In this document: positions 31,227-50,981 of the stretch, one piece after another | How positions within the stretch are numbered: position 1 is the stretch's first letter | Layout of the letters: each line of letters starts with the position of its first letter | Virus record (IMG/VR): IMGVR_UViG_3300043015_002666 | Coordinates: 1 to 64,000 of that record | DNA from: a virus | Strand: one strand, 5' to 3' | Length of the DNA: 64,000 bases | The notes under the pieces: model-generated | What the model was told of the DNA's origin: nothing | The model's input: the letters and a program-made list of their open reading frames with translations, nothing else | Database searches by the model: none | Program-made: the position numbers and the translations under genes

Positions 31227-31235
31227 AAAAACTCC

Positions 31236-33183: not shown

Positions 33184-33199
33184 AACTGAGGAAAATTCT

Positions 33200-36100
33200 A
33201 TGTTAGAAAAACTCAGATCGGCAGTGCTCGCAGTAAATAGTCATAGTGAGCTGCTATCGGTCTTTAACACCTACTCCATATCCATCACACCCACCAGCAC
33301 CAAATCAGCCAATGCTCGCGTGAGAGCCAACGAATTAGCGCAGTCTATTCTCAAGCGCGTTAATGGCGACTTCAGCCAAATCACCGACGAAGAACGCGAA
33401 CAACTCCGAGATTACACCGGTTGGGGCGGCATTGGGGGCTCAACCAATGAGTACTACACGCCTAAATGGGTAGCTAGTGCCGTATGGGATGCCATGTCCG
33501 CGTATGGCTTTACTGGCGGCTCAATCCTTGAACCGGCTTCAGGCGTGGGCGTATTCAGCGAAACCAAACCAAATAACGCGTTAATGACCTCGGTCGAGAT
33601 GGACCCGACCAGCTCAGCCATTAACCAGATTTTACACCCGGAAGACAACGTGATCTCTAGTGGCTTTGAGGCCATCGCCATGGACCCGAACGTCGGAGGT
33701 TTTGACGTTGTAACCGGCAACCCGCCATACGGCGATCGTTCAAGCACTATTGCTCAAGATGGCGAATACAAGGACATTAAGAAGAATGAGCAATACTTTG
33801 TACTCCGTTCTATCGACAAGGCTAAACCCGGTGGCCTGATCGCCCTAGTCCTTCCAACTCAAATTTGTGATAGCAGCAAACTGAAGAAATTCCGCACGCG
33901 TACAGCCATGAAAGCGGAGTTCTTAGGTGCGCACCGTCTGCCTTCTGGTGTATTTGATGGCTCAAGCGTAGTGACTGATCTTGTTATCTGGCGCAAACAC
34001 TCTGAAGAGGCCGCAGAGCAGATCGCTAACGCGGACCCGGCAACGCTAACCGAATCTAATGTGCTTTGGTCTGACTGGATCAACGGAAAGTGGTTTGAGC
34101 GTGACGGATTGCGCTTTATCAATGGCTCGCAAACTATCGGTTTCCAAGGCCGCAAGCTGGTGGACCGTGGCAACCGCTCTAATGAGCAAATTGCTAAGGC
34201 ACTCTCCCACAAGTTTGAATCTCGCATTGAATGGGACCAACTGGATACCGTGGAACCTATTAGCGAGCAATACAGCGACGGCGATACCATTTTCCATAAC
34301 GGCCAACAAATGGAATACGACGGCGGCCAATGGCACGCTGTACAAGCTACAGAGCAACAAAAGACCCTAGATGGCGCTACGTATGGCATCGAGCATTTAG
34401 ATAGCATAGGCGACGCCACCAGCACGACTAAGGCCATGAGCCAGCTCACCGCAGAGCAAGCTATCTCACTGAATGACGATTACGGCCATCTTTGCCATGG
34501 TGAATTCAAAACCATCGTAGCCAACATCAAAAAGCTTCCACCACGTTCCCGCGAAAAAGCGTACAAAGGGATCTTGCTTGGCAAACAGATTGAGCAGTAT
34601 CAAAACCTGTTAGACTTGAGCCGAACGGATAGCGATATTGCCCTGAATGACGAGGAAGTTGCCACACTACGCAACAAGCTAGCCGCGAAAGTAATGGAAA
34701 TGCACATGAAGCATGGTCGCAACTTACCGACCGGTATCAAGTCTATTGACGACAAACTTGCCGCGCATTGGATGCGTTATCAGGGCGCAGTCAGTAAAGA
34801 CGGTCAATTGTCCGATCTGTTAACCGGCAATCTCGCCGTAGCTCAGTCAGAGCAATACGATATGTCACGCATTGATGATGTATTGCATTACTTTGAGCAT
34901 GACCGAGGTATGGAAACCGTCAGATTGACGGACATTCGTTCTGTGTATCTCAATGAGGCCGCGCAACTGGATGATGATCAGCTGATCAATCACCTTGCCG
35001 GGATGGAAAACGTCGCCGCTAACCGTGACGGCTCTTTCTCACCTATGCGTATCGCCACCAGCGGAAACGTGGCCGGTAAGAAACGCAATCTCACCGAGGC
35101 GATTGCTCACACGGACAACGAGACATTGCGCGCCAACTTCATGAAACAGATCAACACGATTGAGGAAAAGCGCGACGCTATTCCAATCAACCAGATCAAG
35201 ATGAAGTTAACGGATAAATGGATTCCCAAACACATCATGTTGGAATTCCTACAGGACCAAGGTTACACCGAGTTCCAGTTAGGCCGCTTTGTGACGGATG
35301 AGGACGGTTTTGAAGACTTTGTAACGGATGAGCGAGGCACTACGTTTACCGGGTACCGCTGGCGCGATGGCAAAAAGGTCAGCTCGCAAGGTGAAGAGTT
35401 CGAGCGACAAATTGAGTCTTATCTCAATTCTGGCGCAGTTCGTGGCGGCAGTGACAACGAACAAAAAGCGATTGTTCGTGAGCGTATGCGTAATCTGGAC
35501 CGTGACTTTACCAACTGGTGCGCATCGAGCGTGCACGCGGACGAACTTGAAGGCCAGTACAACGATATGTTTAACGGCTGGATTGAGCCAAGTTACGAAG
35601 GCACCGACATTGACCTTGAAGGCGTATCCGGGGCGATTAAGTTCATGCCTTACCAGAATTCTACTATCCGCAAACACGCAGCGGACGGTAACGGCATTCT
35701 GGCGCTAGGTACCGGCTTAGGCAAAACACTGACTGCGCTTGGTTTGGGCCAATACCTTATCCAGACCAACAAAGCGAGCCGCATTGCTTATGTCATGCCT
35801 AAATCGGTCCTTGATAACTGGCTGTTTGAGTCGGATATCTTCTTTGGTGAATCGAATCTAGGCGACAAGGTATTTATTGGTATTGATATCGAGCGCGACG
35901 ACGGCAACATGGTCCGTGAGGTAGCCCTTGATGAAGATGGCAAGCCTCGCACTGACGCCAACGGCAACGCCATTAAACGACCAAAAGTGAAGGTGAACAC
36001 CAACGGCAAGAAGATTGCTGAACAACTTCACAACCTCGCGCAGAGCTCCGCAAAAATGGTCTTCATGACCAAGGACGTTTACAACTCTATCCCGCTCAAA

Positions 36101-39100
36101 CCGGCTACGATTGCAGATAACGTCGAAAGTATGGTGGATGCTGGCCTTGTTGCTGGCTCAAACAAGTACGCCAAAGAGGCGAATACGTACCGTGAAGCAC
36201 AGAAAAACGCCAAGTTTGAGCAAAAGCACGCAGATGAAGGTACCAAGAAGAAAGAAACCCTCCCTTTCTATGAAGATCTGTTATTTGACAGCGTGATTGT
36301 GGACGAAGGACACGATTTCCGTAACAGCTTCAAAATGGGCGGCTACGGCAACCGACTTGCTTACCTGCCAAACTCCGCACAAGCCAACCGCGCACTTGAT
36401 ATGCAGATGAAAAATAACCACATCAAGTCACGTAATGATGGCCGTGGTGTTTACATGCTGACAGCGACGCCAACGGTTAACAGCCCGGTTGATTTGTTCA
36501 ACATGCTGTCTCAGGTATTGCCACCAGAAACACTGGCAAAAATGGGCATTGTGGACGCGGACGACTTTATTCGTTTGTTTGGTCACACCGGCGAAACCGC
36601 AGTTACCAAGTTATCGGGCGAAGTGGATACGCGCGAGGCATTGCTAGGCTTCCAGAACCTAGACGCACTACGCAATATCTTTAAACGCTACACGACGGCC
36701 ATGTCGGCTGAAGACGTGCGATCTGACGTACACGTCCCTACTCTCAAAGCCATGACCAACGCGGTTGAAATGAGCGAAGAGCAAAAGGCCGTGTATGAAG
36801 AGCTCCGCCAGCGTGCCGACGCACTGAGTAACCCGGACGAACCTGAAAACCAAGATATCATCGAGCAGTACCCGAATGACTCTGTATTCAGCCTGATCCG
36901 CATGATGGACAAAGCGAACACGGATATGGACCTTTACCATGCCGTGATCACTTACCGATTCAAGAAAGGCGATAAAGACAAGCTTCAGGAAGCGATTGAT
37001 AAACTACCGAAAACTATCAAAGTTCGTCAGCCTAAGCTCGATGGCGAAGGCGAGCCGGTCCTTAATGCCGCCGGTCAAATGACCATGGAAGTGGTCGAGA
37101 TTGATGCTAATTACGATCTGGATACGGACGGCAAGTTCTTAACGCTCAAACTCGCGCAAGAACTGGACGGCCAATTCAGCAAGCTATGCAGTGACGCTGG
37201 TCTGAAATTCTCGCACCCGGTATCACCGAAATACGCCAAGTTCCTAGAAAACGCTAAGACGGCTTATCTCGCTGGTGGCAAGCAATTGGTATTCACGGAA
37301 GAGAAAACGCAGCACGTTAAATTGGCTCGTATCATAGCGGACTATATCGGCTGTGATATCTCAGAAATCGGGATCTTGAATAGTGACACGGTATCGGGCA
37401 AGAAAGGCTCTAAAGCGACGGAAGACGACGAAGAGGCGGGATTGGCTGCGCTTGAGAAAGCTTACAACTCAAGCCAATACAAATTCATGATCCTCAATAA
37501 AAAAGGTGAAGTGGGCGTGAACCTGCATCGTGGTACCACGGATATCCATCACCTTACTTTGCCTTGGACCCCATCTAGCTTGACTCAACGTAATGGCCGT
37601 GGCGCGCGTGTTGGCTCTAAAGCCTCTCAGGTGAACGTGCATTACTATGCCGGTAAGGGCTCGTTTGACCAATTCCGCATTGAAACCATCGAGCGCAAAG
37701 CGAAATGGATTCAAGACTTGTTCAATGGTGGCGAAAGCTATGTTGAGAACGGCAGTGCAGACGATGGCAGCGATACCGCTATCATGCTGGCCGCAGACCC
37801 GGAAGCAGCTAAGGCACGTATCGAGCAAGCACGCATCGAGCGCGAGCGTCGAATTAAACGTGAAGAGCAGCGACAGGCCGCTATCAACGTCAGCAAATAC
37901 GTTCAGGCTTCTATTGCTGCAAATACGGACCTAGAACCTATCCGCCAACGCTTAGCCGAGCTGGTGGATGAAATCGACAACCAGACCGAGAAGACCCGCG
38001 ACGCAGAAGAGCGCGCCAAAGGTGAAAAACGCAGTTCGTGGGAGTACAAGCGATTCAAAGATGAAAAAGATCGTCTGTTCACCCTGACGAAAGAGCGTGC
38101 GCAGCTTCAGAAGACCATCAAGCTTTCTGAAGAGGCCGGGAACACCATTAAACGCCTGAAATCCGTGGTTGAGTCTTCTATTCAAGATGGAACACTGGCC
38201 GGTTACGACGATATCACCACACACCCGGAGCTGTACGCGACTAAAAATGGCGTTGTTCTGCGTAAAGGCTACACGTATCACGTCAACGTACCAGCTTACT
38301 ACTGGAAAGAAGACAGCGAGCATGACGAATACATCCTAACGCTGGATGAATTCAACCGCGCTGAAGGGACCGCAACCGGGATCATCGTGAGCAAACCAAA
38401 CGAGGCTAACCCGACCGCCAGCGCAGGTACCCGCAAATCCAATATCGCGTTTGAGAAGTGGTTTAAGTTGGCTGAGGTGAATCATTCCGAGCAGGAACTT
38501 GCTTCACGCATTGCTAGCGGCATTCCGCTCAGTGCTATCCCAAGTACGATTGACCGTGAAACCTTCTTTGACTTCCACAAACGTGGTTTATTGGTGAAGT
38601 ACGGCCACTACACCAAGCCACTGGTTTACGTGGATAACGGTCGCGTAAAACAACTAGACAGTATGGAATTGCCTGACGGCGCATTCCTGATCTACCCGGA
38701 CTCAAGCGACCCATCGCTAATGAAAGCGTTAATCACGCAAGCCACCAGCGATCTAGAGCGCACCGGACGTGTAATGTTTGCTGACCATGGCACTATCCGT
38801 GCTCTAGTTGGCGAAGACTGGATGCAACAAGCGCAAGCCGGTGGTAACACTGCATCACAAAGTGACGTTGTAGCCGCTGTACAAAAAGCGGTTGAAGCGA
38901 CAGAGAGTGACGCGGAGAACCAGAGCGAGCTTAATGCCGGTCTGATTGAGGCCGCAGGGACTTACAGTGTTTCACGCATCAAGTTTGTGGAATGGGTACA
39001 AAATGAAGTAAACGCGATTAAGTGGGACGGCTATTCCAACCGTGACGAAATCAAGACACTCGTATCGGATGCCATGAAAGACTATCGCAGCTCGTTTAAG

Positions 39101-39859
39101 GCGCGTGGTGAAGTCAAACGACAGGAAACCATTGATAAACTGTTTGCAGACTATATCGCCCTACTCCAAAGCGATCCGAGCCGCAAAGAGCGTTTAATCA
39201 AACTGAATGAAGCTATGCAGCGTCGCAAACGTAGTCATGACTTTATGAATGACTTAGACGAACTCTACCCGGATGACAATTCCGCTATTGTGTCTGTTTA
39301 TGCTGACCTGACCATTACAGAGCGTCACTCTCAACTTGAGAACGGCGAGAAACTGCTAGCAACAAGCAGCTATTCACGTCGCAGTGCGCTAGATAAGTTT
39401 GATTCGGTTCGCTTGTCTTACCCGAACGTGTTCAGCCAGAAAATTGATGAACTGTACGGCGAGAAGGAAGTACCAGAGCCAGAGCCGGTGATTACCGAGC
39501 GCCAGCAAGAAAAGATTGAACAAATTCAATCGGTCGATTTTGACGGCATCGAGACACTTAAAACCGAACTGGCTAAGATTGGTATTACGGTCCAACCGGT
39601 GACACAAGACATTTCTTGGAAGTACAAGCGCAAGACTATCTCTATCAAAGCTTACGCGGGTATTGGCCTTCAAGATATCAATGAGAAGCAAGGCGCACTC
39701 GCTAAGCTACTTATGGGATATAAGAACAAGGACAACAAAGAGAAGTACGGCGCACGCTTCAATAGTGACCCTAGTGAAGACTTTGCCGGTGCGTGGTGGT
39801 TCATTGACTCGGAGAGTGATCTAGAATCATTCTACAACGACATTATGGCCGCTGCTTAA
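33200..39859 (+). CDS. giant N6-adenine methyltransferase + SNF2/DEAD-like helicase fusion (P1 DarB-like)
   Basis: 2219 aa. Methyltransferase motif I is EPASGVGVF and motif IV GNPPYG (33719-33730). Helicase motifs are GTGLGKT, DEGH (about 36304), LTATP and QRNGRGARVG. Confidence 0.9.
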   Translation: MLEKLRSAVLAVNSHSELLSVFNTYSISITPTSTKSANARVRANELAQSILKRVNGDFSQITDEEREQLRDYTGWGGIGGSTNEYYTPKWVASAVWDAMSAYGFTGGSILEPASGVGVFSETKPNNALMTSVEMDPTSSAINQILHPEDNVISSGFEAIAMDPNVGGFDVVTGNPPYGDRSSTIAQDGEYKDIKKNEQYFVLRSIDKAKPGGLIALVLPTQICDSSKLKKFRTRTAMKAEFLGAHRLPSGVFDGSSVVTDLVIWRKHSEEAAEQIANADPATLTESNVLWSDWINGKWFERDGLRFINGSQTIGFQGRKLVDRGNRSNEQIAKALSHKFESRIEWDQLDTVEPISEQYSDGDTIFHNGQQMEYDGGQWHAVQATEQQKTLDGATYGIEHLDSIGDATSTTKAMSQLTAEQAISLNDDYGHLCHGEFKTIVANIKKLPPRSREKAYKGILLGKQIEQYQNLLDLSRTDSDIALNDEEVATLRNKLAAKVMEMHMKHGRNLPTGIKSIDDKLAAHWMRYQGAVSKDGQLSDLLTGNLAVAQSEQYDMSRIDDVLHYFEHDRGMETVRLTDIRSVYLNEAAQLDDDQLINHLAGMENVAANRDGSFSPMRIATSGNVAGKKRNLTEAIAHTDNETLRANFMKQINTIEEKRDAIPINQIKMKLTDKWIPKHIMLEFLQDQGYTEFQLGRFVTDEDGFEDFVTDERGTTFTGYRWRDGKKVSSQGEEFERQIESYLNSGAVRGGSDNEQKAIVRERMRNLDRDFTNWCASSVHADELEGQYNDMFNGWIEPSYEGTDIDLEGVSGAIKFMPYQNSTIRKHAADGNGILALGTGLGKTLTALGLGQYLIQTNKASRIAYVMPKSVLDNWLFESDIFFGESNLGDKVFIGIDIERDDGNMVREVALDEDGKPRTDANGNAIKRPKVKVNTNGKKIAEQLHNLAQSSAKMVFMTKDVYNSIPLKPATIADNVESMVDAGLVAGSNKYAKEANTYREAQKNAKFEQKHADEGTKKKETLPFYEDLLFDSVIVDEGHDFRNSFKMGGYGNRLAYLPNSAQANRALDMQMKNNHIKSRNDGRGVYMLTATPTVNSPVDLFNMLSQVLPPETLAKMGIVDADDFIRLFGHTGETAVTKLSGEVDTREALLGFQNLDALRNIFKRYTTAMSAEDVRSDVHVPTLKAMTNAVEMSEEQKAVYEELRQRADALSNPDEPENQDIIEQYPNDSVFSLIRMMDKANTDMDLYHAVITYRFKKGDKDKLQEAIDKLPKTIKVRQPKLDGEGEPVLNAAGQMTMEVVEIDANYDLDTDGKFLTLKLAQELDGQFSKLCSDAGLKFSHPVSPKYAKFLENAKTAYLAGGKQLVFTEEKTQHVKLARIIADYIGCDISEIGILNSDTVSGKKGSKATEDDEEAGLAALEKAYNSSQYKFMILNKKGEVGVNLHRGTTDIHHLTLPWTPSSLTQRNGRGARVGSKASQVNVHYYAGKGSFDQFRIETIERKAKWIQDLFNGGESYVENGSADDGSDTAIMLAADPEAAKARIEQARIERERRIKREEQRQAAINVSKYVQASIAANTDLEPIRQRLAELVDEIDNQTEKTRDAEERAKGEKRSSWEYKRFKDEKDRLFTLTKERAQLQKTIKLSEEAGNTIKRLKSVVESSIQDGTLAGYDDITTHPELYATKNGVVLRKGYTYHVNVPAYYWKEDSEHDEYILTLDEFNRAEGTATGIIVSKPNEANPTASAGTRKSNIAFEKWFKLAEVNHSEQELASRIASGIPLSAIPSTIDRETFFDFHKRGLLVKYGHYTKPLVYVDNGRVKQLDSMELPDGAFLIYPDSSDPSLMKALITQATSDLERTGRVMFADHGTIRALVGEDWMQQAQAGGNTASQSDVVAAVQKAVEATESDAENQSELNAGLIEAAGTYSVSRIKFVEWVQNEVNAIKWDGYSNRDEIKTLVSDAMKDYRSSFKARGEVKRQETIDKLFADYIALLQSDPSRKERLIKLNEAMQRRKRSHDFMNDLDELYPDDNSAIVSVYADLTITERHSQLENGEKLLATSSYSRRSALDKFDSVRLSYPNVFSQKIDELYGEKEVPEPEPVITERQQEKIEQIQSVDFDGIETLKTELAKIGITVQPVTQDISWKYKRKTISIKAYAGIGLQDINEKQGALAKLLMGYKNKDNKEKYGARFNSDPSEDFAGAWWFIDSESDLESFYNDIMAAA

Positions 39860-39870
39860 GCGAACTAAGG

Positions 39871-39894: not shown

Positions 39895-39912
39895 TCTATT
39901 TGAGGAATTTAT

Positions 39913-40320
39913 ATGATTACTAAAGTTGAGTTACCGACGCCTGAAGCACTTAAGCCACTGCGTGACGAAGCGTTAGAAGGCACCACAGCGGACGAATGGA
40001 CGACTAAGCACTTATTGTCGATTACGTCATTACTGAGTGAGCATCCCCTCTCCTATCGCACGTATGGCCCTTACTGGTGGTCGATTAAGGCGCTATTGAA
40101 AGAGCGCGGTTTTGATTACGGCGAAGACGACGAACCGGTCACGCGTGAACACTTCAGCTACGCGGACCCGGTTGATTTGATTTGCGCGGCGTGGGCTTAT
40201 CAACAACACATCGTGGACATGCAGATCATTGGTTTTAACATTCATCCATTCACAATTGATGATGAACCGTTTGATTATTCCATCGAAGACACCGACCTAG
40301 AAGCAGCCCCATACCTTTAA
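39913..40320 (+). CDS. hypothetical acidic protein
   Basis: 135-aa ORF with a GAGGA Shine-Dalgarno. Confidence 0.7.
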   Translation: MITKVELPTPEALKPLRDEALEGTTADEWTTKHLLSITSLLSEHPLSYRTYGPYWWSIKALLKERGFDYGEDDEPVTREHFSYADPVDLICAAWAYQQHIVDMQIIGFNIHPFTIDDEPFDYSIEDTDLEAAPYL

Positions 40321-40406
40321 CCCAAACCGGGACCACCATTGGTCCCGGCTCATTTGCTCACACCCTTACCCACCGTTTTTGTGGATAACCCTTCTTACTT
40401 ATTTTT

Positions 40407-40666
40407 GATATCCGTAATGATATCTAAATTGATATCACAATAAATATCTAAAGTGATACCTTTCTAGGTATCCTTGTATATATCAATCAAGATATCTTTC
40501 TTGATACAAGTAACGGTATCCACTATGATACAACGATTGGTATCATTTTGAGTTTAAGTAACGATATCCATCTAGATATCACTAGGGATATCGAAGCTCA
40601 CACCAATGCAAACAACTACACACTAATATTGATATCAATCAAGATATCCCATTCGATATCTTTGAT
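40407..40666. repeat. upstream centromere-like array: GATATC-type hexamers on an exact 12-bp register
   Basis: Hexamers start at 40407+12n for n=0-11, as GATATC, GATACC, GGTATC, GATACA or TATATC. Further copies are at 40563, 40575 and 40587, and at 40631, 40643 and 40655. A DnaA box is at 40380-40388. Confidence 0.8.
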
Positions 40667-40687
40667 TGAGGTAAAAGGCTGATAAAA

Positions 40688-41473
40688 ATGAGAAAAATCA
40701 TGATTACCGCTAGAAAGGGCGGCGTTTGTAAAACAACTATCACTGTAAACTTGGCTTACACTCTGGCAAGGCTAGGGAAGAAAGTTTTAATTATCGACCT
40801 TGACGCACAGGCCGACTCAACCAAGTTTTATCGCGCTGGTCGTTCGGACTTTTACATTGGCGACGTACTACTTGAGCGCAAATTTGACATAAGAAAAGCA
40901 ATCTACAAGGCGCAGGTAAAAGGCGAAGAGTTGGAGAATTTACACATCATTCCGGGCCGACCTAATGACGAAATGACCGTGCTTGACAGACAAGTTTTCT
41001 CACTAAGTCGAAGCGAAGAGAGGCTAACTTACCAGCTTAACAAGCTCGATACTGACGAATACGACTTCCTACTTATCGACACATCACCAACGGCCACTAC
41101 GCTATCCATGAACGCAACCATGGCGTGTGACGAATTCCTTTTCCCTACCGATTTTACCGGCCTGTCTCTGGATGGCATCGACTCTATTATTGAGCACATT
41201 CAAGATCTCAAGCTGATTGAGGAAGATGAAATCAACTTCCTTGTGGTGCCGTCATCTGTAGATAAGAAGTCGGTTAAAACGGTTCGCTATGGTGAGGAAT
41301 ACATCGCGGCCAAATATCCAGACAACCGAACTAAAACCGTGATCTGGCAAAAGCCAGCCATTTTTAACGAGGCGGTATTGCGATTCCTGCCAATCGCAGC
41401 GATCAGCAATTCCGACATTTCATCTATTCACTACAAAGAACTAGCTCAAGAGGTACTTGATAATGTCCTTTAA
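40688..41473 (+). CDS. parA: ParA-family partition ATPase
   Basis: 261 aa with the deviant Walker A KGGVCKTT, then DLDAQ and IDTSP. Confidence 0.9.
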   Translation: MRKIMITARKGGVCKTTITVNLAYTLARLGKKVLIIDLDAQADSTKFYRAGRSDFYIGDVLLERKFDIRKAIYKAQVKGEELENLHIIPGRPNDEMTVLDRQVFSLSRSEERLTYQLNKLDTDEYDFLLIDTSPTATTLSMNATMACDEFLFPTDFTGLSLDGIDSIIEHIQDLKLIEEDEINFLVVPSSVDKKSVKTVRYGEEYIAAKYPDNRTKTVIWQKPAIFNEAVLRFLPIAAISNSDISSIHYKELAQEVLDNVL

Positions 41474-42009: not shown

Positions 42010-43838
42010 TTTCCTCGCTTGGCTGGCAACGCTGCCGCCGGGGAATAAATCCACTCCATGAAGTCGGCCATTAGCATAGGTACCACGGCACCCAACCCGG
42101 ACCAATCATCACTGTAGTTAGATAGGTAGGCTTGTTTCGCTTCAGACGGACTATGAAAACCGAGCATTACCTTGTGTTCATCAAACGCCCCGGAGTCGGG
42201 ATCGACCTGATTTATCACGTAAGCATACTTAGGCTTTTCATTCTCACCTAAGAACACATCCACTTCGTCACCGTCCGCACCTTGCGAGCCATAGATATAA
42301 CCGTAATGATGATTCATGCGGGTACGCCATTCCACGCCGTTCGCGTCGGTTCCTTTGCGGTCACTGCCTTTTGGATTCTCAATTTCAACCGGCAAACCAG
42401 CAAAGCGCAATGACCCGGTTTGGTAGTCATTGTTTTCTAGCTGTTCCTGCGTGGGTTCTGGCAAGTCGTTTTGTGGGGATGTGGCCGCTTTGTTAGCGAG
42501 CTCATCAATACGTGCTGACTCAAACATAAAGCCACCTTGCCCGGTTTGCTGCTCTTCCAAGCGTTGGCCGACTTGCGAGAGCACTTCAATTAACGTCACC
42601 TCACCACCACCAAACATATCACCAATGGCGCTACCATCTTTGCGGAGCTGTTCATTGATAACGTTCGCCAGTTCTTTAAAGGCTTCAGCCATGCGCTTGG
42701 CACTGCGATTGTTCGCAGAGATAAACCGGGCGAGGGCTTCCACTTCAGGATCGTTGTCACCAAACAACCCCGATTGCGCGATCAGTTCGTTAATGTCCTG
42801 TCCGCTGTCTTTTGCCTGTCTGACAAGCTCAGTCGCACTCACAAGCGAGTTAAGCGCCTTATCGGCTAATGACTCATCTTGCGACTCAACACCGCTTACA
42901 ATGCCATCTGACACCGATTTATGGACCACACCGTCTAGGTACTGCATTTCTACAAACTGACTGGCTGAACTGTTGAGCGCATTCAGAATGTTTCGAATTT
43001 CTGGATCAGGCTCTTCCGCCACCAGCTTAACCAGTCTGTCATTCTTGTACGCCTTGGCAAAGATGGCGTTTTGCATGCGATCTAGTAACTGGCGGGTAGG
43101 GCGACCGTCAGACGTCACCAGACCGGCGGCGGACGTATCACCAAGCGCACGCATGAACGATTGTACAAATCCATCATTACTGCGCGCTAGCAAGCTGCCA
43201 GACTCGGACGGCGAGAGTAGGGCCATCATTTTATCGTCCATGACTTCAGCATCGACCCAAGCCGTTTCTGACGCGCTCATTTGCTGCAAGTCAGAAAGGT
43301 TAGAATCACGCGCAAACGTGGCCCGGTCCATTTCGGTTAATCGTTCACGCACTAACACCGGCTTATCCATTCCTTTCACGACGTCAGAATCAAAGCCAAA
43401 GCGTTGAGCGTTATCAATTAAATACTGGCGATAATCATCACCCTTACTGGTGCTGTAGGCTTTCAAAATAGCCATGGTTCGACCGTTGCCAGACTCCACC
43501 ACCAGATCGGGACCAACAATAGGCGCACCATGCGAACTAAGGCCGCTATCAGTGAGCTGTGCCGGTCGCAGGTTCCCGGCCATCTTGTCAATCTGCATTA
43601 TCGAAGCTTTACGCGTGCGGTCGCGTGGCTGTAATTCTTCCGGGAACGCGGGGTTAATTTTGCCATCTGGCGTATTAGATGGAATAAGTTGATCCGCCTC
43701 GACCAACTTAAACGCGGTTTGGACCTCATCACCTTTGGCCGTGACAACAAAACTATCCCGGCCTTTCTGACTGGCACCGTCAAACAGTGCCAGTAGTTCA
43801 GAGAATGATTTAGCCCGTTGAATTGAGGCTAGAATCAT
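42000..43838 (-). CDS. ParB/Srx-like N-terminal domain fused to an inorganic-pyrophosphatase-like C-terminal domain
   Basis: N-terminus: QPRDRTR...VVESGNGRTMAILKAY. C-terminus: VEIENPKGS..RK, HHYGYIYGSQGADGDEVDVFLG and DPDSGAFDEHKVMLGF, which parallel the E. coli Ppa active-site blocks. Confidence 0.7.
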   Translation of the reverse strand: MILASIQRAKSFSELLALFDGASQKGRDSFVVTAKGDEVQTAFKLVEADQLIPSNTPDGKINPAFPEELQPRDRTRKASIMQIDKMAGNLRPAQLTDSGLSSHGAPIVGPDLVVESGNGRTMAILKAYSTSKGDDYRQYLIDNAQRFGFDSDVVKGMDKPVLVRERLTEMDRATFARDSNLSDLQQMSASETAWVDAEVMDDKMMALLSPSESGSLLARSNDGFVQSFMRALGDTSAAGLVTSDGRPTRQLLDRMQNAIFAKAYKNDRLVKLVAEEPDPEIRNILNALNSSASQFVEMQYLDGVVHKSVSDGIVSGVESQDESLADKALNSLVSATELVRQAKDSGQDINELIAQSGLFGDNDPEVEALARFISANNRSAKRMAEAFKELANVINEQLRKDGSAIGDMFGGGEVTLIEVLSQVGQRLEEQQTGQGGFMFESARIDELANKAATSPQNDLPEPTQEQLENNDYQTGSLRFAGLPVEIENPKGSDRKGTDANGVEWRTRMNHHYGYIYGSQGADGDEVDVFLGENEKPKYAYVINQVDPDSGAFDEHKVMLGFHSPSEAKQAYLSNYSDDWSGLGAVVPMLMADFMEWIYSPAAALPAKRGKIS

Positions 43839-44512
43839 GCGGCTACCTCTTCAGCAATGGCAAGCTCGCTTTGGTGATACTCAAACCATTTAATGGTACC
43901 GGTCTTTAACTCATCAAGGCTCAACTTATCCTTAAGCAATTCAAGTACGCGACGGAATGCGCTTTTATCAACCCCGGTAAACTCACCTAACTTAAATTTC
44001 TCTTCAATCGTCAGCTCTTTATCAGTTTCAGGCTCGTACTTCTTGATAAGCTTCATTGCCTTGGAGCGTTGCGCTCTATTCCACGTCCACGAATCATTCC
44101 CCTGATTTTCGCTTTCTTTACCGGCTTTTTCTTCCCAATAACTATACCCGCGTGATAAACGGCCTTTATAACCGAACTGGATGCCATGCTTAGAACGGAA
44201 AACCACATAGCCATCTTTTTGTTCTAGGACTGAATAATCCGGGTAAAAAGCCATCTCATATTCGTACCAGTTTGGGTAACTCAGAACGACGTCAAACGCC
44301 TTGATCTTGTCGGAACGACCCATTGCCTTAAAGTCGTCGAGAGAAATCACGTCCGCTTTGGGAGTGTTGGACGCTTTGAGTTTTTTCAGGATGGCAATGC
44401 GCTCTTTACCCTTGGCGATACGGTCCTTTAATGACAGTGAGCCATCGCGCAATTCTTTGATTAGGGAATTTAACTGACTGCTCAACCCTAGCTTTGTTTT
44501 TAAATCCATCAT
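43835..44512 (-). CDS. hypothetical protein
   Basis: 225-aa ORF with an ATGA overlap. Confidence 0.7.
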   Translation of the reverse strand: MMDLKTKLGLSSQLNSLIKELRDGSLSLKDRIAKGKERIAILKKLKASNTPKADVISLDDFKAMGRSDKIKAFDVVLSYPNWYEYEMAFYPDYSVLEQKDGYVVFRSKHGIQFGYKGRLSRGYSYWEEKAGKESENQGNDSWTWNRAQRSKAMKLIKKYEPETDKELTIEEKFKLGEFTGVDKSAFRRVLELLKDKLSLDELKTGTIKWFEYHQSELAIAEEVAA

Positions 44513-44742
44513 GACACCTCTACCACGAACCCAAACATGGTCGCCTTAAACATAAAATCTGCCGGGGAAACTTCCGGGCCTTCTGGCATGTGGCCGTATT
44601 CGTTCGGGATATCATCCCAAGGAAAACGCATACCCAAATCATCAAACTCTGGCTCTGCCGGTTCGTTCATATCGTAGCTATCGTAAAACGACACAAAACA
44701 AGTCCGCTCATCGCTACTGGTTAGCTTTAGTCGAATCATCAC
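44509..44742 (-). CDS. hypothetical acidic protein
   Basis: 77-aa ORF in the same operon. Confidence 0.6.
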   Translation of the reverse strand: MMIRLKLTSSDERTCFVSFYDSYDMNEPAEPEFDDLGMRFPWDDIPNEYGHMPEGPEVSPADFMFKATMFGFVVEVS

Positions 44743-45934
44743 TACCTCTTGCCTTGTCGTGTAAGTGAGCTATTACGCCCACAATAAATTCAAAGTGTTC
44801 TGGATCGTTCACGGCCAATCGCCCTCTTGATTCGTTATCAATCAGAGATTCAACCCCCATCGTGATCACTTCTGTAGCCGTGGCACCGTCGATATCAAAC
44901 GGATCGGCATGGTTGTAAAACTTGGTGGCGTAGGGCGTGAATGCGCCGTCATCAATCGTGTATTCACGTTCTGAGTAGTTAATCCCACGCTTAGATCCCC
45001 ACTTATCCTGATAGATATCACGCAGGGAACGGATACCATTAGATTTAGCTAGGCGGTCCTTTAGAAAGCGTTTCGACATTTCGAGCACTTCCGGGTGATC
45101 GTACTCAAGCGAATGGGCCAGCTCATGCCATAGCACACGCTTGGTAAAACTCTCGCCCACACTGATTGAACGCTCACTATTGCGGTAATCTTGGCGCGCT
45201 TTGCGCACCGTAAAGTTGATAGGTTCAGCAGTGAACGCCACCAGCGAATACAGCTCACCGGCTGCGGTAATGAGCTTTTGTTTAGCTCTGCCACCGCCCC
45301 CGGTAAAGTCGCCTTTGCGCTGGCGAGACAAGCGATTGTTTGCCAGCTTATCAAAGCCTGATTGCATCGCTTTCCTTTGGCCGTCCTTAAGACTGACCGG
45401 AGAGTTAAACATTAACTCATTCACTACACCGGATAGCTGGTGGCCCACTTCCTTGTATTTCTCCCGGTGAATATCCCGGACCTCTTCATAAATGCCAAAA
45501 GTGTGGTTATCGTTTGGTTGCGCCTTGTCAGCCCCCACCAGTCGATACACATCGTAAGCTTGCGCATGCTGAGCTATAGCATCGAGCGTGCGTGCTTTCT
45601 TTGGCTTACTCCATCTTTGGGCCTCAATGAGATCCGTGATTCTAGCATTGCCTTTAATGGTTTCGCTTACTTCACTCTTAAGGTTTCGGTCTATCTCAAC
45701 ACCAAAAGAGGCCAGCACATCCCGGCCCTTTTGAGTGACAGCTTTCAGCTCGGTTACTTCGCTATCGGATGGATTCACGCCTTTTCGCCCTGTCAGCTCT
45801 GACAAAATATCAAGACGTTCCTTGGTTAAAGCCATGCGATCAAGAAGAGGCACGTTGGCCCCTTCTCGTTTCAGGTAAACCAATATCTCCACGGCGCGAC
45901 CGGCTTTTTTAACGCGTTCGCTAAGTGGGACCAT
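44714..45934 (-). CDS. zincin-like metallopeptidase domain protein
   Basis: 406 aa with HExxH in LWHELAHSLEY. Confidence 0.65.
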   Translation of the reverse strand: MVPLSERVKKAGRAVEILVYLKREGANVPLLDRMALTKERLDILSELTGRKGVNPSDSEVTELKAVTQKGRDVLASFGVEIDRNLKSEVSETIKGNARITDLIEAQRWSKPKKARTLDAIAQHAQAYDVYRLVGADKAQPNDNHTFGIYEEVRDIHREKYKEVGHQLSGVVNELMFNSPVSLKDGQRKAMQSGFDKLANNRLSRQRKGDFTGGGGRAKQKLITAAGELYSLVAFTAEPINFTVRKARQDYRNSERSISVGESFTKRVLWHELAHSLEYDHPEVLEMSKRFLKDRLAKSNGIRSLRDIYQDKWGSKRGINYSEREYTIDDGAFTPYATKFYNHADPFDIDGATATEVITMGVESLIDNESRGRLAVNDPEHFEFIVGVIAHLHDKARGSDDSTKANQ

Positions 45935-48900
45935 TACACTGTCACCTCCGATTGAAGTTCAACCAAGCGAGCAAACGCGGCTTCTAGTAAGTCGTTATGC
46001 TCGTCTAAGGTACCGGCTGATTCAAAGCTGGCATAAGCAGCCTCAATGTCGGCTTGGTACTGCTCAAGAATCTCAATCGTTGCGTCACCGGAGTAATCAC
46101 GGATAGTGCGTAGCGCATCAGTGTGCACCTGCTCTTCTGAGTTAGTTTCCACTGGTTCAGGCTCCTGTACCGGCTCTGGTTGCGGCTCTGGCTGTTGTTT
46201 TGGTTTATCGTCCGTGTAAGTCTCAATAAACGGTTTCTGACCGCCATTGTGCTCTATACGGATACGCTGAGCGATCTTCATCGCATCATTAATGCTGTAG
46301 CCGTTAACTAGCAACGTGTCGTAGATATCATCTTGACCTTGGTAGTTCATTGAGCCGTCATCATTGAACCACTTAACCGTTGATAAGCCTTTTAGCATGG
46401 CTTTGAACTTCTCGGTTTCAGCGTCCAGCACGTTTTCTACCGGCGGCTCGTTAATACCTTCAATGTAAACACCCGCGTTTACAATCTCTTCCTTACCAAC
46501 CGAGAAAACTTCGTCAGTGGTACCCGCCTCTCTTAACGTGACTCTGGATGCGCCAATATTCACAATCTTGTATTGACCATCGCCCAACGCGATAATGTCA
46601 CCAACCTTGTTGACCTTGTTCGTATTTGTTTCTTCCTCTGGATCGTACCACTGTGCTTCGTGAAGCAATTTAACAAAGTCAGCTTTGCTAATTTCGTTCT
46701 TAAGCATCGCTTCAAAGTTAACGCCTACATGCTTATTCTCGCCTTGGGCCATACCAGCGTTAGAAATCGTTCTGATATCGTAGTCAGACAAATCCAAGTA
46801 GTGAGCAAACAGTTTTTCGCCCTTAGATTTACTGATTGGGTAGCCTTGCTCTACCGCGCTATCAATCATTTCTTTGTACAGGTTGTAAACGCCGTACACG
46901 TAGCCGTTGTACTTAATCTTGTCTTTTGTCTTAGGAACGATATCTTTGAAATCTTTAGTTCCATAAACAAAATTCTCGTCAATGTACTCATCCAGTTTTT
47001 TACTCGTTGCGCCCTTCATGGCTTCGAACTTATCAGGCTCATCGTTAACGCTCATGTAGGCTTTACGGGCCGCATCACTCAATTTCTCTTTTGCATCGTC
47101 GTCCATAAGGTCAAACGCTCGGAGGAGTTCTTGAGGATTTTTCTGACCAACATAGGACCACGACTTACCAAAAAGACCCGGAGTGATAATGTCATATTCG
47201 CGCTGGTTAAAGTCGTACACTTCACCGTTCACTTCAACCACCGGCGCGTTAACGTCGTAACCTTCATTGGCATCTAACCAATACCCAATATCGCTCGCCC
47301 ATTTCTTTTTATGTCTTGCACTGGTGGACGCATTCAGAAGGTCGGCTCTGATTGTATCTGGCACATTGTGAATAAGCGTTTCTGACAGCATTAATTTGCC
47401 ATCTTTAAGTGCTAACGCACCAACCTCAACCGATTTAACTAGCGCACGGATTGCATCAGCAAAACTTGTGCTGTTGTCTTTATGTTGTTTGGTTTCTTCG
47501 CCGCTGTCGTCTAGGCCGGTAATGGCCGGTAAACCTGCCGCCACACGTAGATCGTTAAAACCTTCTTCTTCATCCGTGCCAGCAAAGTGATTAATGGCAC
47601 CCGGATCTTGCAACTCTCCAACGTAAGCCTCTAAAAGAGCGGCCTTAACCTGATCCCAGCCTGATAAACTTTCAGCTCCGGTAATAGGTGAACCTTCGTC
47701 ATAAGTAAGATTAAAAGAGCCATCTTCTTTGTAATGAATATCGTAAGAGCCATAATTACTGCTTGAATCAATCTTGAATAAAGGCGATTCAACGTTAACG
47801 GATAAATACATTTCTTTATCTAGGTTTAGATCTGCTTGATCTAAGCCATGCTTATCAATATTCCAACCTTCAGGCATACGCTTGCCTTTCACTAACGCTC
47901 TTAGCTCTGCAAGGGCTTTCTCGTTCTTAACGCGGACGTCAGAGACAAGAACGTCAATATAACCGGCCTCCTCTTCAATCATGGTTGGTGTCACCAGTGA
48001 TAGGGACGCATTCCAAACCTTAAACGTATCCGGGATGCTTTTACGACGTTCAAACTCATCTTGCTTGCGCAATAGCTTGCTAAACGCTTGCTTAAAGCTA
48101 GATGCAGCTACTTGGAATTTAATGTCTTCCATCTGCTTGGTTGTGATACGATCCGTATTGTTCTCGTCCATCCAGTCATACAGGAATTGACGCACGATAG
48201 TTTCCGCCGAATCTTCGTCGGCCAGTGAAAAATCTTCACCTGACTCTGATAGCGGTCTAAGCTCAAAGTCGCTCACTTGTTTAGGCGTTAACGCTTCTGC
48301 ATACGCGATTGCACCATGGCGAATTGCACGGCCAGCGTTAGGGAACTTAACTTCCGCCTCTTCCGCGTTGAGCACCTTAACAACTTCCGCATCACTTGGC
48401 GTATTCCCCATACCAGCCGGGCGCAATTGCAGGCCGTACCAATGCAGACCGCTTGTGGTTTCTTCTTCCTGTTCGACTACGCCACCAGCTTCGGGTACGT
48501 CGTTGACTTCACCAAGTTTCCAGATTGAATGGCGCTTAGTGAATGCTGGCTTAGTGGCAACTTTGTTGTACTCCGCAATCATGGTTAGCACGTTGTTAAC
48601 TTGCGGCTGGTGGCCTTGACGTTGCAAGGTCTTCAGCTTACCGGCAAGATTGCTCACAAACAGGGAACGGTCAAAACCGGCAAGGTTTGGATCATTGCTA
48701 TCAATGCCAGAGATATTCATAAGAGAAGAAAGCAAGCGAACGTTACCATCTTTGACAACGATATCTGCCGCTGCTTTAAACGCTGGCGAACCGAGCAATT
48801 TACTGTCGGTCGTTTCTGGCTTGTTGTTATCCGGGTTTTCACCGGTACCCGGCACAAACTTATTGGCTAACTGCTTGCGTAGCTCTTCCTGAATGTCGTT

Positions 48901-49641
48901 CTGGTTGGCGATCTGCTTATTGAGCGTATCAATGCGCTTTTGCTTCTTAGCGTTAGCCTCTTCGATGCTATCAAGCTGATCCGACTGAGTATTAATGTTC
49001 GCTTCAATCTCTTCTAGCTGCGCTTGTGTCGCTTCAAGCTCTTGCTTTTGTTGTGCGTTTTGCTCTTGTCTGGCTGCGAATTTCTCCGAGTTCTTTTCAA
49101 CTAAGTTACTCAGCGCAAGGGCCATTTGGGAACGTGAAATATCACGGCCACCTGAAGGCGCGACCGCGTGCGTTACGTCACGACTGTTCACCAAGAATCG
49201 GAACGCGATCAGCGTATCGTCAGCATTGATTTTTAATGGATCATTATCCGGGGCATGAAATACCAGTGACACGCTCTGACCGTCAGAAAGATTCAGCTTT
49301 GCCACTTGAACCGCAACCGAACCGCTTTTACGTGGCTTGCTGATCTCACGCCCTGTTACTTCAATGCCAACCGGCTTAAGGTGTTTGTTTAGCGTATTCG
49401 AAAAACCGATAACGCGAGTCTCTAAACGGGCCGCTTTGGCTTTGATGGCTTCAAGCATCATTACCGGCATAGCGTCAAACTGAGACAAGTACGCTTGCTC
49501 AATGTCGGCCACTTCGACCGACTCAAGCATTAGTTGGTGTTCGTCCGCTTGAAAGATGGCACTTACGGCCTCTTCACTTAACGACTTGGCAAAGTGGTCT
49601 ACGCGGTCCACCACTCGAATTTGATTGGTCTGCAAAAACAT
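45934..49641 (-). CDS. large (1235 aa) putative virion/injected protein
   Basis: Long ORF with a coiled-coil segment. Its N-terminal roughly 200 aa is paralogous to the upstream 205-aa protein. Confidence 0.8.
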   Translation of the reverse strand: MFLQTNQIRVVDRVDHFAKSLSEEAVSAIFQADEHQLMLESVEVADIEQAYLSQFDAMPVMMLEAIKAKAARLETRVIGFSNTLNKHLKPVGIEVTGREISKPRKSGSVAVQVAKLNLSDGQSVSLVFHAPDNDPLKINADDTLIAFRFLVNSRDVTHAVAPSGGRDISRSQMALALSNLVEKNSEKFAARQEQNAQQKQELEATQAQLEEIEANINTQSDQLDSIEEANAKKQKRIDTLNKQIANQNDIQEELRKQLANKFVPGTGENPDNNKPETTDSKLLGSPAFKAAADIVVKDGNVRLLSSLMNISGIDSNDPNLAGFDRSLFVSNLAGKLKTLQRQGHQPQVNNVLTMIAEYNKVATKPAFTKRHSIWKLGEVNDVPEAGGVVEQEEETTSGLHWYGLQLRPAGMGNTPSDAEVVKVLNAEEAEVKFPNAGRAIRHGAIAYAEALTPKQVSDFELRPLSESGEDFSLADEDSAETIVRQFLYDWMDENNTDRITTKQMEDIKFQVAASSFKQAFSKLLRKQDEFERRKSIPDTFKVWNASLSLVTPTMIEEEAGYIDVLVSDVRVKNEKALAELRALVKGKRMPEGWNIDKHGLDQADLNLDKEMYLSVNVESPLFKIDSSSNYGSYDIHYKEDGSFNLTYDEGSPITGAESLSGWDQVKAALLEAYVGELQDPGAINHFAGTDEEEGFNDLRVAAGLPAITGLDDSGEETKQHKDNSTSFADAIRALVKSVEVGALALKDGKLMLSETLIHNVPDTIRADLLNASTSARHKKKWASDIGYWLDANEGYDVNAPVVEVNGEVYDFNQREYDIITPGLFGKSWSYVGQKNPQELLRAFDLMDDDAKEKLSDAARKAYMSVNDEPDKFEAMKGATSKKLDEYIDENFVYGTKDFKDIVPKTKDKIKYNGYVYGVYNLYKEMIDSAVEQGYPISKSKGEKLFAHYLDLSDYDIRTISNAGMAQGENKHVGVNFEAMLKNEISKADFVKLLHEAQWYDPEEETNTNKVNKVGDIIALGDGQYKIVNIGASRVTLREAGTTDEVFSVGKEEIVNAGVYIEGINEPPVENVLDAETEKFKAMLKGLSTVKWFNDDGSMNYQGQDDIYDTLLVNGYSINDAMKIAQRIRIEHNGGQKPFIETYTDDKPKQQPEPQPEPVQEPEPVETNSEEQVHTDALRTIRDYSGDATIEILEQYQADIEAAYASFESAGTLDEHNDLLEAAFARLVELQSEVTV

Positions 49642-50258
49642 TACTGCGCTTCCTCAATTTGTTTTTCTAGATCTTTGGTTTCGGCTTTCTCCGCTGCGAG
49701 CTCTGCCGTTAATCGCTCAATCTCAGAGTCCATAGAGGCGCTTTGAGTGTTTGCAGCTTCCAGTGAGGACGTGATAGCACTCTGATTCTCTTGCAATGCG
49801 GACAGACTTGCTTTGGCTTCGTCTAATCGCTTGCTTACACTGCGCGTTAAGGGCTTGCTGGTTGAAGTGTCTTTTACGGCCTTGTTAGCTTTGCGCGCTT
49901 GCTGCTTATCAAATTTGGCTTGGTTGCGGTTAAGCATGTTTGTCATGTCTTTAGCCAGTTCACGTTCGCTGGTGGCGTCTGGCAATGGCTGCTTAGTCGA
50001 ATTAAGCTGTAGCTGGTAAATGTCGCCTTCAGAGCCGATAAATAGCGTCATGGTCTGGCCGTTCTCAAAAAAGAACTTGGCTTGCTTCACGCGTTGCGAA
50101 TCTTTGCGCTTAGGCTTGTTGTCGGCCTGAATGTCGGTCACTGGCTCACCGGCACGTTTTAACGCGTCCACCAGCGACTTTAAGCCACGTTCGGTCACGT
50201 TATCGTAATCAACGACAACGTAACCGTGATTTTGTCTCGATGCGAATAGTCTACTCAA
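49641..50258 (-). CDS. hypothetical protein, paralogous to the N-terminus of the 1235-aa protein
   Basis: Compare KPKRKDSQRVKQAKFFFENGQTMTLF...KFDKQQ with KPRKSGSVAVQVAKLNLSDGQSVSLVF...KFAARQ. Confidence 0.75.
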   Translation of the reverse strand: MSRLFASRQNHGYVVVDYDNVTERGLKSLVDALKRAGEPVTDIQADNKPKRKDSQRVKQAKFFFENGQTMTLFIGSEGDIYQLQLNSTKQPLPDATSERELAKDMTNMLNRNQAKFDKQQARKANKAVKDTSTSKPLTRSVSKRLDEAKASLSALQENQSAITSSLEAANTQSASMDSEIERLTAELAAEKAETKDLEKQIEEAQ

Positions 50259-50670
50259 TGTAAAAATCCTCTTGGTATTTCGTGACGGTCGGGAATATCT
50301 TGTAAAGCGGATTCAGGCGAGAGCATGAGCGTTCGATCTTGATGTGTAGCTGCCACGCTTGGCCGTGAACCGGCTCCCCGGCCTCTTGCTGTAGCTGCTC
50401 AATATCGAAGGTAAGAAATTCGGAGTTCAGACCATTGACGGAAAAGTCCAAAGAACGGTGATGCGTGATCACGGACGTAGGCCGCTTTTTATTTCTCAAG
50501 GAGTACGTGATTTGGCTACTTGAAAACGCGCGCTTGGCCCGGAAATCAAGTGCAAATCGCAAAGTTTGCTGGTCGTGCATTTCGCTGACGCGCTCGATTT
50601 TCACCGTGTTGCGTTTAAGTAAAAATCGATCAGCGAAGGCTACCCCAATCACTGCCAATTCATAAATCAT
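50251..50670 (-). CDS. hypothetical protein (LydB position)
   Basis: 139-aa ORF with an ATGA overlap to the upstream membrane protein. Confidence 0.6.
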   Translation of the reverse strand: MIYELAVIGVAFADRFLLKRNTVKIERVSEMHDQQTLRFALDFRAKRAFSSSQITYSLRNKKRPTSVITHHRSLDFSVNGLNSEFLTFDIEQLQQEAGEPVHGQAWQLHIKIERSCSRLNPLYKIFPTVTKYQEDFYIE

Positions 50671-50981
50671 TTAGTCTTTCCTCCGAAGTTGAGCGCGCCC
50701 GAAAACCGCTCAATGAAATGTTTTTTCAGTGCAAGTAGTGTGTCTGAACCGTTATTGGACAGGATTAACACCGCCGCACATGTATAGCCTCGATCTATCT
50801 CTTGAGTTTCTCCGATATAGGCCACAATCAACCCCACGATAGCGGCCAAAACCAGCTCCGCTAAGAGGTCAAAGTAACCGTTATATCGTCCTGCGCGTTT
50901 GCCTTGCAGAAAGGAGCCGAAGCCGCTGAAAAACGAGAGAGCTAACACCAACGCTGTAAACCCGATATCAATAACTAACAC
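50667..50981 (-). CDS. small membrane protein, possible holin
   Basis: 104 aa with about 3 hydrophobic helices, first gene of the operon. The position is analogous to P1 lydA at the head of the darA operon. Confidence 0.5.
   Translation of the reverse strand: MLVIDIGFTALVLALSFFSGFGSFLQGKRAGRYNGYFDLLAELVLAAIVGLIVAYIGETQEIDRGYTCAAVLILSNNGSDTLLALKKHFIERFSGALNFGGKTK

Follow-up and report, generated by a model that had tools for sequence, protein, structure and literature searches.

A probable orthologue of the phage P1 Dar system, with a split DdrB and an enlarged DarA, in a P1-like phage-plasmid of the Vibrionaceae type

The IMG/VR virus record IMGVR_UViG_3300043015_002666 was analyzed over its positions 1 to 64,000, a stretch of 64,000 nucleotides that we refer to as the window. 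Between positions 33200 and 50981, two sets of genes converge on a plasmid partition (par) cassette: a rightward pair, darB and ulx, and a leftward series of eight genes that opens with the holin gene lydA and includes hdf and darA. Together they very probably represent an orthologue of the Dar antirestriction system of phage P1, carried by a P1-like phage-plasmid of the Vibrionaceae. Dar is the textbook case of phage-injected proteins that protect DNA: its components are packaged in the phage head and enter the cell along with the DNA, which they shield from restriction enzymes of the host. To our knowledge, work on it, which is said to include that of Iida in 1987 and of Piya in 2017, has hardly gone beyond P1 itself. 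In P1, its genes are arranged as a darB-ulx locus and a lydA-lydB-hdf-darA-ddrA-ddrB operon (Gonzales 2022; Zheng 2026). For comparison of dar operons we used the Vibrio plasmids L001 (NZ_CP082309, from V. alginolyticus), L003 (V. campbellii), L004/L010 (Vibrio sp. THAF), and L005, together with a Photobacterium sequence (L006) and three Logan contigs (L007-L009).

The darB gene (33200..39859, plus strand) encodes a protein of 2219 residues in which an N6-adenine methyltransferase is fused to a superfamily 2 (SF2/SNF2) helicase. It covers phrog_1685 from end to end (E=0), matches the Pfam families of Eco57I-type methylases and SNF2-rel_dom, and aligns with P1 DarB over its whole length at 32% identity (BLASTP, 2336 columns). 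An earlier note, made from the sequence alone, had recognized the architecture of P1 DarB here and had listed five motifs, all of which are present: EPASGVG at residue 111, NPPY at 174, GTGLGKT at 837, DEGH at 1035, and QRNGRGARVG at 1463. The combination of methylase and helicase, and the similar length, are thus shared with P1. Directly 3' of darB, as in P1, and starting 54 nucleotides past its stop codon lies ulx (39913..40320, plus strand), which the earlier note omitted. Its acidic product of 135 residues (26 Asp and Glu versus 9 Lys and Arg) matches phrog_1629, annotated as Ulx-like antirestriction (1e-30), and is 34% identical to P1 Ulx (E=3e-17, BLASTP).

Facing this pair, eight leftward genes follow one another without interruption from position 50981 down to 42000, with products of 104, 139, 205, 1235, 406, 77, 225, and 612 residues, in the order lydA-lydB-hdf-darA-zincin-orf77-ddrA-ddrB'. 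Neighboring genes abut or overlap by 1 to 29 nucleotides, so that the series reads as one operon, and all ten dar/lyd open reading frames (ORFs) are intact, with coupled starts. The first gene, lydA (50667..50981, minus strand), encodes a holin of 104 residues with two strongly hydrophobic segments, at residues 1-25 and 34-59; it matches the holin family phrog_1527 (1.6e-19) and scores 26.8 bits with PF16083, just under the cut-off of 28.4 bits. That the leftward operon opens with a holin gene, as it does in P1, had been proposed before and agrees with these LydA-type matches. The second gene, lydB (50251..50670, minus strand), which had also been overlooked, encodes a 139-residue antagonist of the LydA holin that matches Pfam PF16084 LydB above its gathering score (1.2e-12) as well as phrog_1898 (6e-21). 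It is followed by hdf (49641..50258, minus strand). The 205-residue product, whose P1 counterpart is DarA's partner on the inner capsid surface, matches phrog_1620, Hdf-like antirestriction (2e-44), Pfam DarA_N (7.5e-9), and the Hdf chain 9ukm_H in the Protein Data Bank (PDB) (6.6e-21), and it is 31% identical to P1 Hdf (E=2e-25, BLASTP). Hdf and DarA, both proteins with a DarA_N domain, are therefore encoded in tandem after lydA-lydB in an order identical to that of P1. The ORF coordinates given in the earlier note all agree with the ORF table.

The darA gene (45934..49641, minus strand) encodes 1235 residues, compared to 639 for P1 DarA. Residues 1-464 are P1-like, comprising DarA_N, a coiled coil, and DarA_C, and are followed by a middle region (465-1150) and a conserved tail of 76 residues. 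The protein matches Pfam DarA_N (3e-29) and DarA_C (7e-9) and the P1 DarA chain 9ukm_I of the PDB (1.9e-28). By BLASTP, residues 14-464 align with residues 16-472 of P1 DarA at 25% identity, and residues 1152-1229 align with 551-628. The capsid-binding residues of P1 DarA (70-382) fall within the aligned region, and the roughly 690 residues that DarA has in addition are accommodated after DarA_C, ahead of the conserved tail. When 1.84 billion representatives were searched exhaustively, only 24 relatives of the middle region were obtained, each of which matches a sub-segment of it, at a different position. Nine of these were scanned: seven carry an N-terminal DarA_N domain, one has DarA_C only, and one, of 147 residues, has no match, while the position of DarA_C in the scanned relatives ranges from residue 271 to residue 881. 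DarA length in relatives varies from 842 to 1805 residues, and one relative that is 97% identical is without residues 871-1004. Judging from these alignments, DarA would consist of a constant capsid anchor and a string of exchangeable modules that are found almost only in DarA proteins, in shuffled order. An AlphaFold2 model of residues 384-1235, computed from an alignment of four sequences, was not usable (predicted score in the local distance difference test [pLDDT], 49.6; predicted template modeling score [pTM], 0.26), and a Foldseek comparison of the variable part with the PDB gave a best match of E=0.15 with a template modeling score of <0.1. In P1, residues 383-639 of DarA are flexible and are not seen in the virion structure (PMC12810830).

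DdrB, in P1 a single polypeptide of 995 residues with a ParB part and a metallopeptidase (MPTase) part, is represented in the window by two genes, with the peptidase half encoded upstream of the ParB half, the reverse of the P1 domain order. The ParB half belongs to a protein of 612 residues, DdrB' (42000..43838, minus strand), in which a ParB-like domain and a helical region (residues 1-441) are followed by a type I inorganic pyrophosphatase (InPase) domain (465-597); unlike in P1, an InPase thus takes the place of the MPTase. The fusion had been noticed before and is borne out by Pfam (ddrB-ParB, 2e-39; InPase, 9e-52), and its motifs include GNGR at residue 117 and DGDEVD at 522, an intact InPase signature. 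By BLASTP, the protein is 60% identical to residues 10-442 of P1 DdrB (E=2e-175). Among the protein segments that we compared, the ParB half (residues 9-441; 42516-43814) ranks first in conservation, with 60% identity to P1 and about 58% to phage D6, above the portal (40% to P1) and the other Dar proteins (23 to 34%). This pattern suggests an activity under strong constraint; its cause may be either a constraint of unusual strength or horizontal transfer. The InPase part matches residues 636-755 of a protein described as "gp19 Portal" (PDB 9b41_L; E=3e-30). Such a domain would then be of a type that occurs inside heads, at the C terminus of the phage portal 9b41, consistent with an intracapsid location.

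The peptidase half is the product of the zincin gene (44714..45934, minus strand), a standalone, putative HExxH metallopeptidase of 406 residues whose homologue in P1 is the MPTase domain at the C terminus of DdrB. The HExxH motif pointed out previously is HELAH at residue 270. The protein matches positions 641-994 of 995 in phrog_2299 (1.5e-12) and, by BLASTP, residues 643-894 of DdrB (E=5e-11, with WHELxHxLEY aligned); when the zincin family is compared with DdrB by hhalign, residues 779-992 are aligned with a probability of 97.2% (E=3.7e-11). W269, H270, E271, H274, S275, E277, and H280 are invariant in eight homologues, and the AlphaFold2 model has a pLDDT of 84.8. Pfam gave no match to the zincin, and BFVD gave only uncharacterized phage proteins. 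On the THAF plasmids, the zincin is again encoded by a separate gene. The possibility that it is fused into the longer DarA of relatives was discarded, since BLASTP of the 406-residue protein against DarA of L003, L004, and L005 came back empty.

Directly after the zincin gene lies orf77 (44509..44742, minus strand), encoding an acidic protein of 77 residues (16 Asp and Glu versus 5 Lys and Arg) that has no match in Pfam, PHROG, or NCBIfam and no counterpart in P1. The gene occupies the same position in L001, in THAF191d (39% identity, E=4e-16), and in the three Logan contigs (L007-L009); its product is a candidate extra Dar component. The next gene (43835..44512, minus strand) encodes a protein of 225 residues that we regard, with moderate confidence, as DdrA-like. 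Three of the five members of its family alignment match phrog_1855, "DdrA-like anti-restriction protein" (best E=1e-7), and in L003, L004/L010, and L005, though not in L001, the family is encoded directly after darA, as ddrA is in P1. P1 DdrA is shorter (121 residues), and the two are alike in the C-terminal 50 residues or so only. When P1 DdrA was compared by BLASTP with the proteins of 77, 225, and 406 residues, no match was obtained, and only profile methods link the 225-residue family to DdrA. A helical motif, L..R.A..KER..IL..L, is common to the N termini of the zincin and the DdrA-like protein, while DarB and DdrB' both begin with S-x-SELL-x-x-F (SHSELLSVF in DarB, SFSELLALF in DdrB'). 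Such shared N-terminal motifs may be capsid-targeting or processing signals. The SELL motif, however, was dropped as evidence for shared capsid targeting because the annotated DdrB' of L003 is without that N terminus.

By gene content and order, the window represents a Vibrionaceae-type phage-plasmid that is P1-like (Punavirus-related), and its synteny with P1 extends over both Dar loci. Genes of P1 type for structure, lysis, and packaging are present in the order known from P1, together with plasmid maintenance genes. The P1-type families encoded include Prt, Pro, homologues of U, S, and R, gp16, BplA, PmgA, Sit, and PmgB, as well as tail fiber and assembly proteins, a PacA/PacB-like terminase, a single-stranded DNA-binding protein (SSB), and a Dam-type methylase; the terminase, SSB, and methylase genes are located elsewhere in the window, away from the Dar loci. 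As in P1, darB-ulx diverges from prt-pro, and the darA operon adjoins tail fiber and baseplate genes; beyond ddrB...hdf-lydB-lydA come the counterparts of U, S, R, 16, bplA, pmgA, and sit, with PmgB also represented. Identities to P1 proteins are 23 to 40%, except for the 60% of the DdrB N-terminal half. Unlike in P1, the blocks of darB and darA have opposite relative orientation, the former being inverted, and both converge on the par cassette, orf77 is additional, and neither cin nor lydC lies between lydA and the tail fibers.

At the DNA level, a search of sequenced phages gave no match to the window, and the best matches are nonmobilizable Vibrio plasmids of 90 to 140 kb. The closest sequenced relative, L001, shares approximately 78% DNA identity over darB, and DarA is 60% identical in the nearest sequenced relative. 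P1-like prophages of the Vibrionaceae, such as pVv01, p0908, and plasmids of V. alginolyticus, V. campbellii, THAF, and Photobacterium damselae, are elements of the same type, and for pVv01 of V. vulnificus, which is inducible and forms myovirus particles, DarA and DarB were reported in 2014 (PMC4132613). The Dar system, its domain families, and P1-like Vibrio elements are already known. The variant architecture, in contrast, is found in public Vibrio plasmid records in which it is annotated as hypothetical, and we found no paper describing it. Sequenced Vibrio plasmids resemble the window in the order holin-lydB-hdf-darA...par...ulx-darB, in a long DarA, in the standalone zincin with orf77, and in the ParB-InPase fusion, although gene order and par type also differ, with zincin-orf77-ddrA in the window and ddrA-zincin-orf76 in THAF. 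The fusion recurs in L003 and L010, and the Photobacterium sequence L006 has the ParB half alone. Among the sequenced Vibrio plasmids compared, zincin, orf77, and ParB-InPase occur together in THAF191d only; zincin and orf77 occur without ParB-InPase in L001, and ParB-InPase occurs without an operon zincin in L003. Across several Vibrio plasmids, the three are intact at 39 to 74% identity.

Homology, domain content, the integrity of motifs, gene order, and conservation in relatives all argue for an orthologue of the P1 Dar system. The core of the earlier reading, a Dar-like antirestriction module, hence receives strong support from homology and synteny, and the profile comparison of the ORFs with P1 Dar proteins that it had called for assigns the large ORFs to the DarB, DarA, and DdrB families. 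By these comparisons all six P1 Dar proteins would have a counterpart here, namely, DarB, Ulx, Hdf, DarA, the DdrA-like protein, and DdrB (as two genes). The earlier view that most partners are unrecognizable and that the component set looks different from that of P1 did not hold up: Hdf, DarA, the DdrB halves, and the DdrA-like protein each map to P1, and only orf77 is without a counterpart. Several results nevertheless weigh against the assignment. DarA scores 201.8 bits (2e-59) with the NCBIfam model anti_RE_DarA, below the equivalog cut-off of 350 bits, which is expected for a protein with 25% identity and a 690-residue insertion. The 225-residue protein of the window does not itself match the DdrA profile of PHROG, and when its family is aligned with P1 DdrA by hhalign, the match is confined to the C-terminal 50 columns, at E=9e-4 and a probability of only 23%; the assignment is hence indirect, via relatives that are 25 to 42% identical. 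The AlphaFold2 model of the zincin matched no solved peptidase among PDB folds. The closest relative, L001, is without the ParB-InPase gene, which must therefore be dispensable at least there. Finally, the -22 box of P1 late promoters (AAGTnACTT, up to 1 mismatch) is found 22 times in the window versus 29.7 expected, leaving gene order as the argument for late coexpression.

By analogy with P1, the eight-gene operon would be expressed late, with the lysis and tail genes. All six Dar proteins have been found in P1 virions (PMC9024508, Table 1), where the junctions of pentons and hexons on the inner capsid are occupied by 55 pairs of DarA and Hdf, Pro removes the DarA N terminus, and the other Dar proteins are added in order, dependent on DarA and Hdf (PMC12810830). 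Likewise, Hdf and the N-terminal part of the Vibrio DarA would bind the inner face of the procapsid, Pro would trim the DarA N terminus, and the DdrA-like protein, DdrB', and lastly Ulx and DarB would be recruited onto this platform. DarB would enter the head by means of an N-terminal targeting signal, given that residues 1-30 of P1 DarB suffice for capsid targeting (PMC9024508). Upon infection, the Dar proteins would leave the head with the DNA and protect it in cis until the element is established, probably against type I restriction; in P1, it is the packaged DNA that is protected, in cis, both from type I systems and from BREX (PMC12707154). The C-terminal MPTase of P1 DdrB has been proposed to self-process DdrB (Iyer et al. 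2017, PMC5512222), and the free peptidase half found here would need to work in trans. In this lineage, the DarA modules and a pyrophosphatase would be codelivered.

The domains involved, DarA-N, DdrB-ParB, InPase, and MPTase, have been described in polyvalent proteins (PMC5512222), and the SNF2 helicase and methylase also belong to this common vocabulary (Iyer, Burroughs, Anand, de Souza, and Aravind 2017). The earlier note had made this connection, and it stands: DdrB' aligns with residues 248-844 of a PHROG family of 2204 positions, a large polyvalent family. Polyvalent proteins combine 2 to 15 conflict-related domains in one polypeptide, as do DarB and DdrB', whereas the zincin, Hdf, and the DdrA-like protein are single-domain proteins. 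In the window, the domains are thus spread over several genes, and the peptidase thought to cut polyvalent proteins is a separate protein. The internal proteins IPI* and IPIII of phage T4 follow the same logic, with an N-terminal prohead signal, protease trimming, and ejection with the DNA to counter restriction (Gonzales 2022), but they have no sequence relationship to Dar proteins, and IPI* inhibits one type IV enzyme whereas Dar is a multiprotein system that acts in cis against type I enzymes.

Conceivably, Dar in the Vibrionaceae could be a modular injection platform in which the Hdf/DarA-N anchor and the highly constrained ParB half are constant and the cargo (the pyrophosphatase, the free peptidase together with its small acidic partner, and the shuffled modules of DarA) is interchangeable. 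We consider this a tentative and rather doubtful idea. If true, each lineage would inject its own cocktail against defenses beyond type I restriction, possibly including nucleotide signaling. A related version, which we judge unlikely, holds that the cargo platform is aimed mainly at defenses other than type I restriction, with the pyrophosphatase, the DarA modules, orf77, and the free peptidase as lineage-specific effectors against nucleotide-based signaling or other Vibrio defenses; antirestriction would then be just one activity among several. In its favor, the effector end of DdrB is swapped between lineages: P1 has the MPTase there, the window has InPase, as do L003 and L010, and the Photobacterium L006 has nothing. 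In addition, the DarA middle is composed of shuffled modules restricted to DarA proteins. InPase has, moreover, been speculated to target nucleotide derivatives or pyrophosphate early in infection (Iyer et al., PMC5512222), and P1 Dar also counters BREX (PMC12707154). Yet no DarA middle module has a recognizable enzymatic fold, and DarB, Ulx, and the DdrB ParB half, which in P1 are tied to EcoB/EcoK protection, are the best conserved parts.

The location of the operon among structural genes, and of darB next to the portal and protease genes, would also suit a module that serves chiefly in head morphogenesis, with Hdf and the enlarged DarA as internal scaffold or head-size determinants, the remaining proteins as assembly factors or passengers, and little or no antirestriction role in Vibrio. 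In P1, both proteins bind penton-hexon junctions, and without DarA or Hdf the fraction of normal-size heads drops from approximately 80% to approximately 15% (PMC12810830). A methylase-helicase of 2219 residues with intact motifs, a ParB-type domain, and a pyrophosphatase, however, are not scaffold proteins, and we hold this explanation to be quite improbable as a replacement for the Dar reading. Since scaffold and antirestriction roles coexist in P1, it rather supplements that reading. Gene decay in a defective plasmid-prophage, with the split DdrB and the extra ORFs as remnants, could be suspected from an insertion sequence (IS) transposase in the window, from the related Vibrio plasmid p0908, judged defective (PMC4132613), and from the loss of the ParB-InPase gene in L001, but it is most improbable given ten intact dar/lyd ORFs with coupled starts, the retained catalytic motifs, and the persistence of zincin, orf77, and ParB-InPase in several Vibrio plasmids, which argues for selection.

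The Vibrio version of Dar bears on which half of DdrB does what and whether the peptidase is needed in cis, on why the ParB half outranks even the portal in conservation, and on the role of the flexible C-terminal half of DarA, which here would be made up of exchangeable modules. Which cargo can ride on Dar, a pyrophosphatase for example, matters for the proposed use of P1 heads as protein delivery vehicles. For a family of marine Vibrio plasmids with genes annotated as hypothetical, the system would provide a further, antidefense function.

Upstream of darB, pro and prt (30267..32891, minus strand) diverge from it as in P1. They encode a head-processing protein of 319 residues (phrog_1801, the P1 Pro family, 6e-103) and a portal of 551 residues (phrog_1497, 6e-164), the latter being the 40% match to P1 Prt by BLASTP mentioned above. 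The intergenic region between prt and darB (32892..33199, plus strand) contains blocks that are identical in the alignment with L001, even though identity in the coding DNA on either side is no more than about 78%. The first of them, AAGTTGTTA-N4-TAATGC, has the geometry of a P1 late promoter. The second consists of an A-run, a hairpin, and a T-run, ends approximately 16 nucleotides before the darB ATG (fold z=-2.55), and may be a leader or attenuator of darB. Sites resembling the -22 box upstream of prt, darB, and lydA were set aside as late promoters, being anecdotal without enrichment across the window. At the other boundary of the dar operon (51018..51102, minus strand), a strong hairpin with a T-run (51102-51077) lies 3' of the tail fiber assembly gene, and a sigma-70-like site, TTGTTA-16-AATAAT (51045-51018), lies upstream of lydA; these terminator-like and promoter-like elements were identified by consensus alone, and promoter-like sites are no more numerous in this region than chance would give. 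A further hairpin with a 12-pair stem and a T-run (41902..41931, plus strand), again a consensus match only, separates the par cassette from the 3' end of the dar operon. On the THAF plasmids L004/L010, a radical SAM gene, absent from the window, immediately precedes the holin gene and so separates the dar operon from the tail fiber genes.

The par cassette (40400..42010, plus strand) is not part of Dar. It comprises a small ParA gene (40688-41473; Pfam AAA_31, CbiA, and ParA) and an ORF of 138 residues (41457-41873). On either side of it, GATATC (or GATACC/GGTATC) boxes recur in arrays with a 12-bp phase (repeat families D1-D3), with about 20 boxes upstream (40400-40660) and about 12 downstream (41865-42010), where the array enters the stop codon of the gene for DdrB'. 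The two arrays resemble the paired centromere sites that would belong to a type Ib partition system. The earlier note had described a Dar module split around the cassette. The position is as described, and par genes likewise lie between converging dar units in L003, L005, and L010. The two Dar loci, however, are separate in P1 as well, so that we are dealing with a rearrangement of the genome map rather than with one module that was split. In L001, the segment between ulx and the dar operon (22700-31400) contains genes for RepB, large ParA/ParB, a CsgG/HfaB-family protein, and an Hpt-domain protein. Since these genes take up the gap there, without ParB-InPase, the junction appears to be a hotspot for cargo.

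An independent assembly, a contig from Logan SRR13207416 (L007), has the same genes in the same order as window positions 42000-51574, with product lengths within 1 to 4 residues; its 406-residue product is identical to that of the window, and its 225-residue product is identical except for the start codon. An identical zincin is also recorded on a contig of 86 kb (sources JGI and Logan), and the element was probably sampled as a nearly complete replicon of approximately 86 kb. Scans of the window for Rfam families and tRNAs found nothing, and NCBIfam contributed no more than the DarA match below its cut-off. The IS transposase (18929-20065; phrog_506, 1.5e-146) is located within the early/replication part of the element. 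Adjoining the terminase genes is an ORF of 206 residues (4619-5239) that resembles a tyrosine recombinase and matches only the C-terminal part of integrase families; a Cre-like recombinase, either short or truncated, is one possibility.

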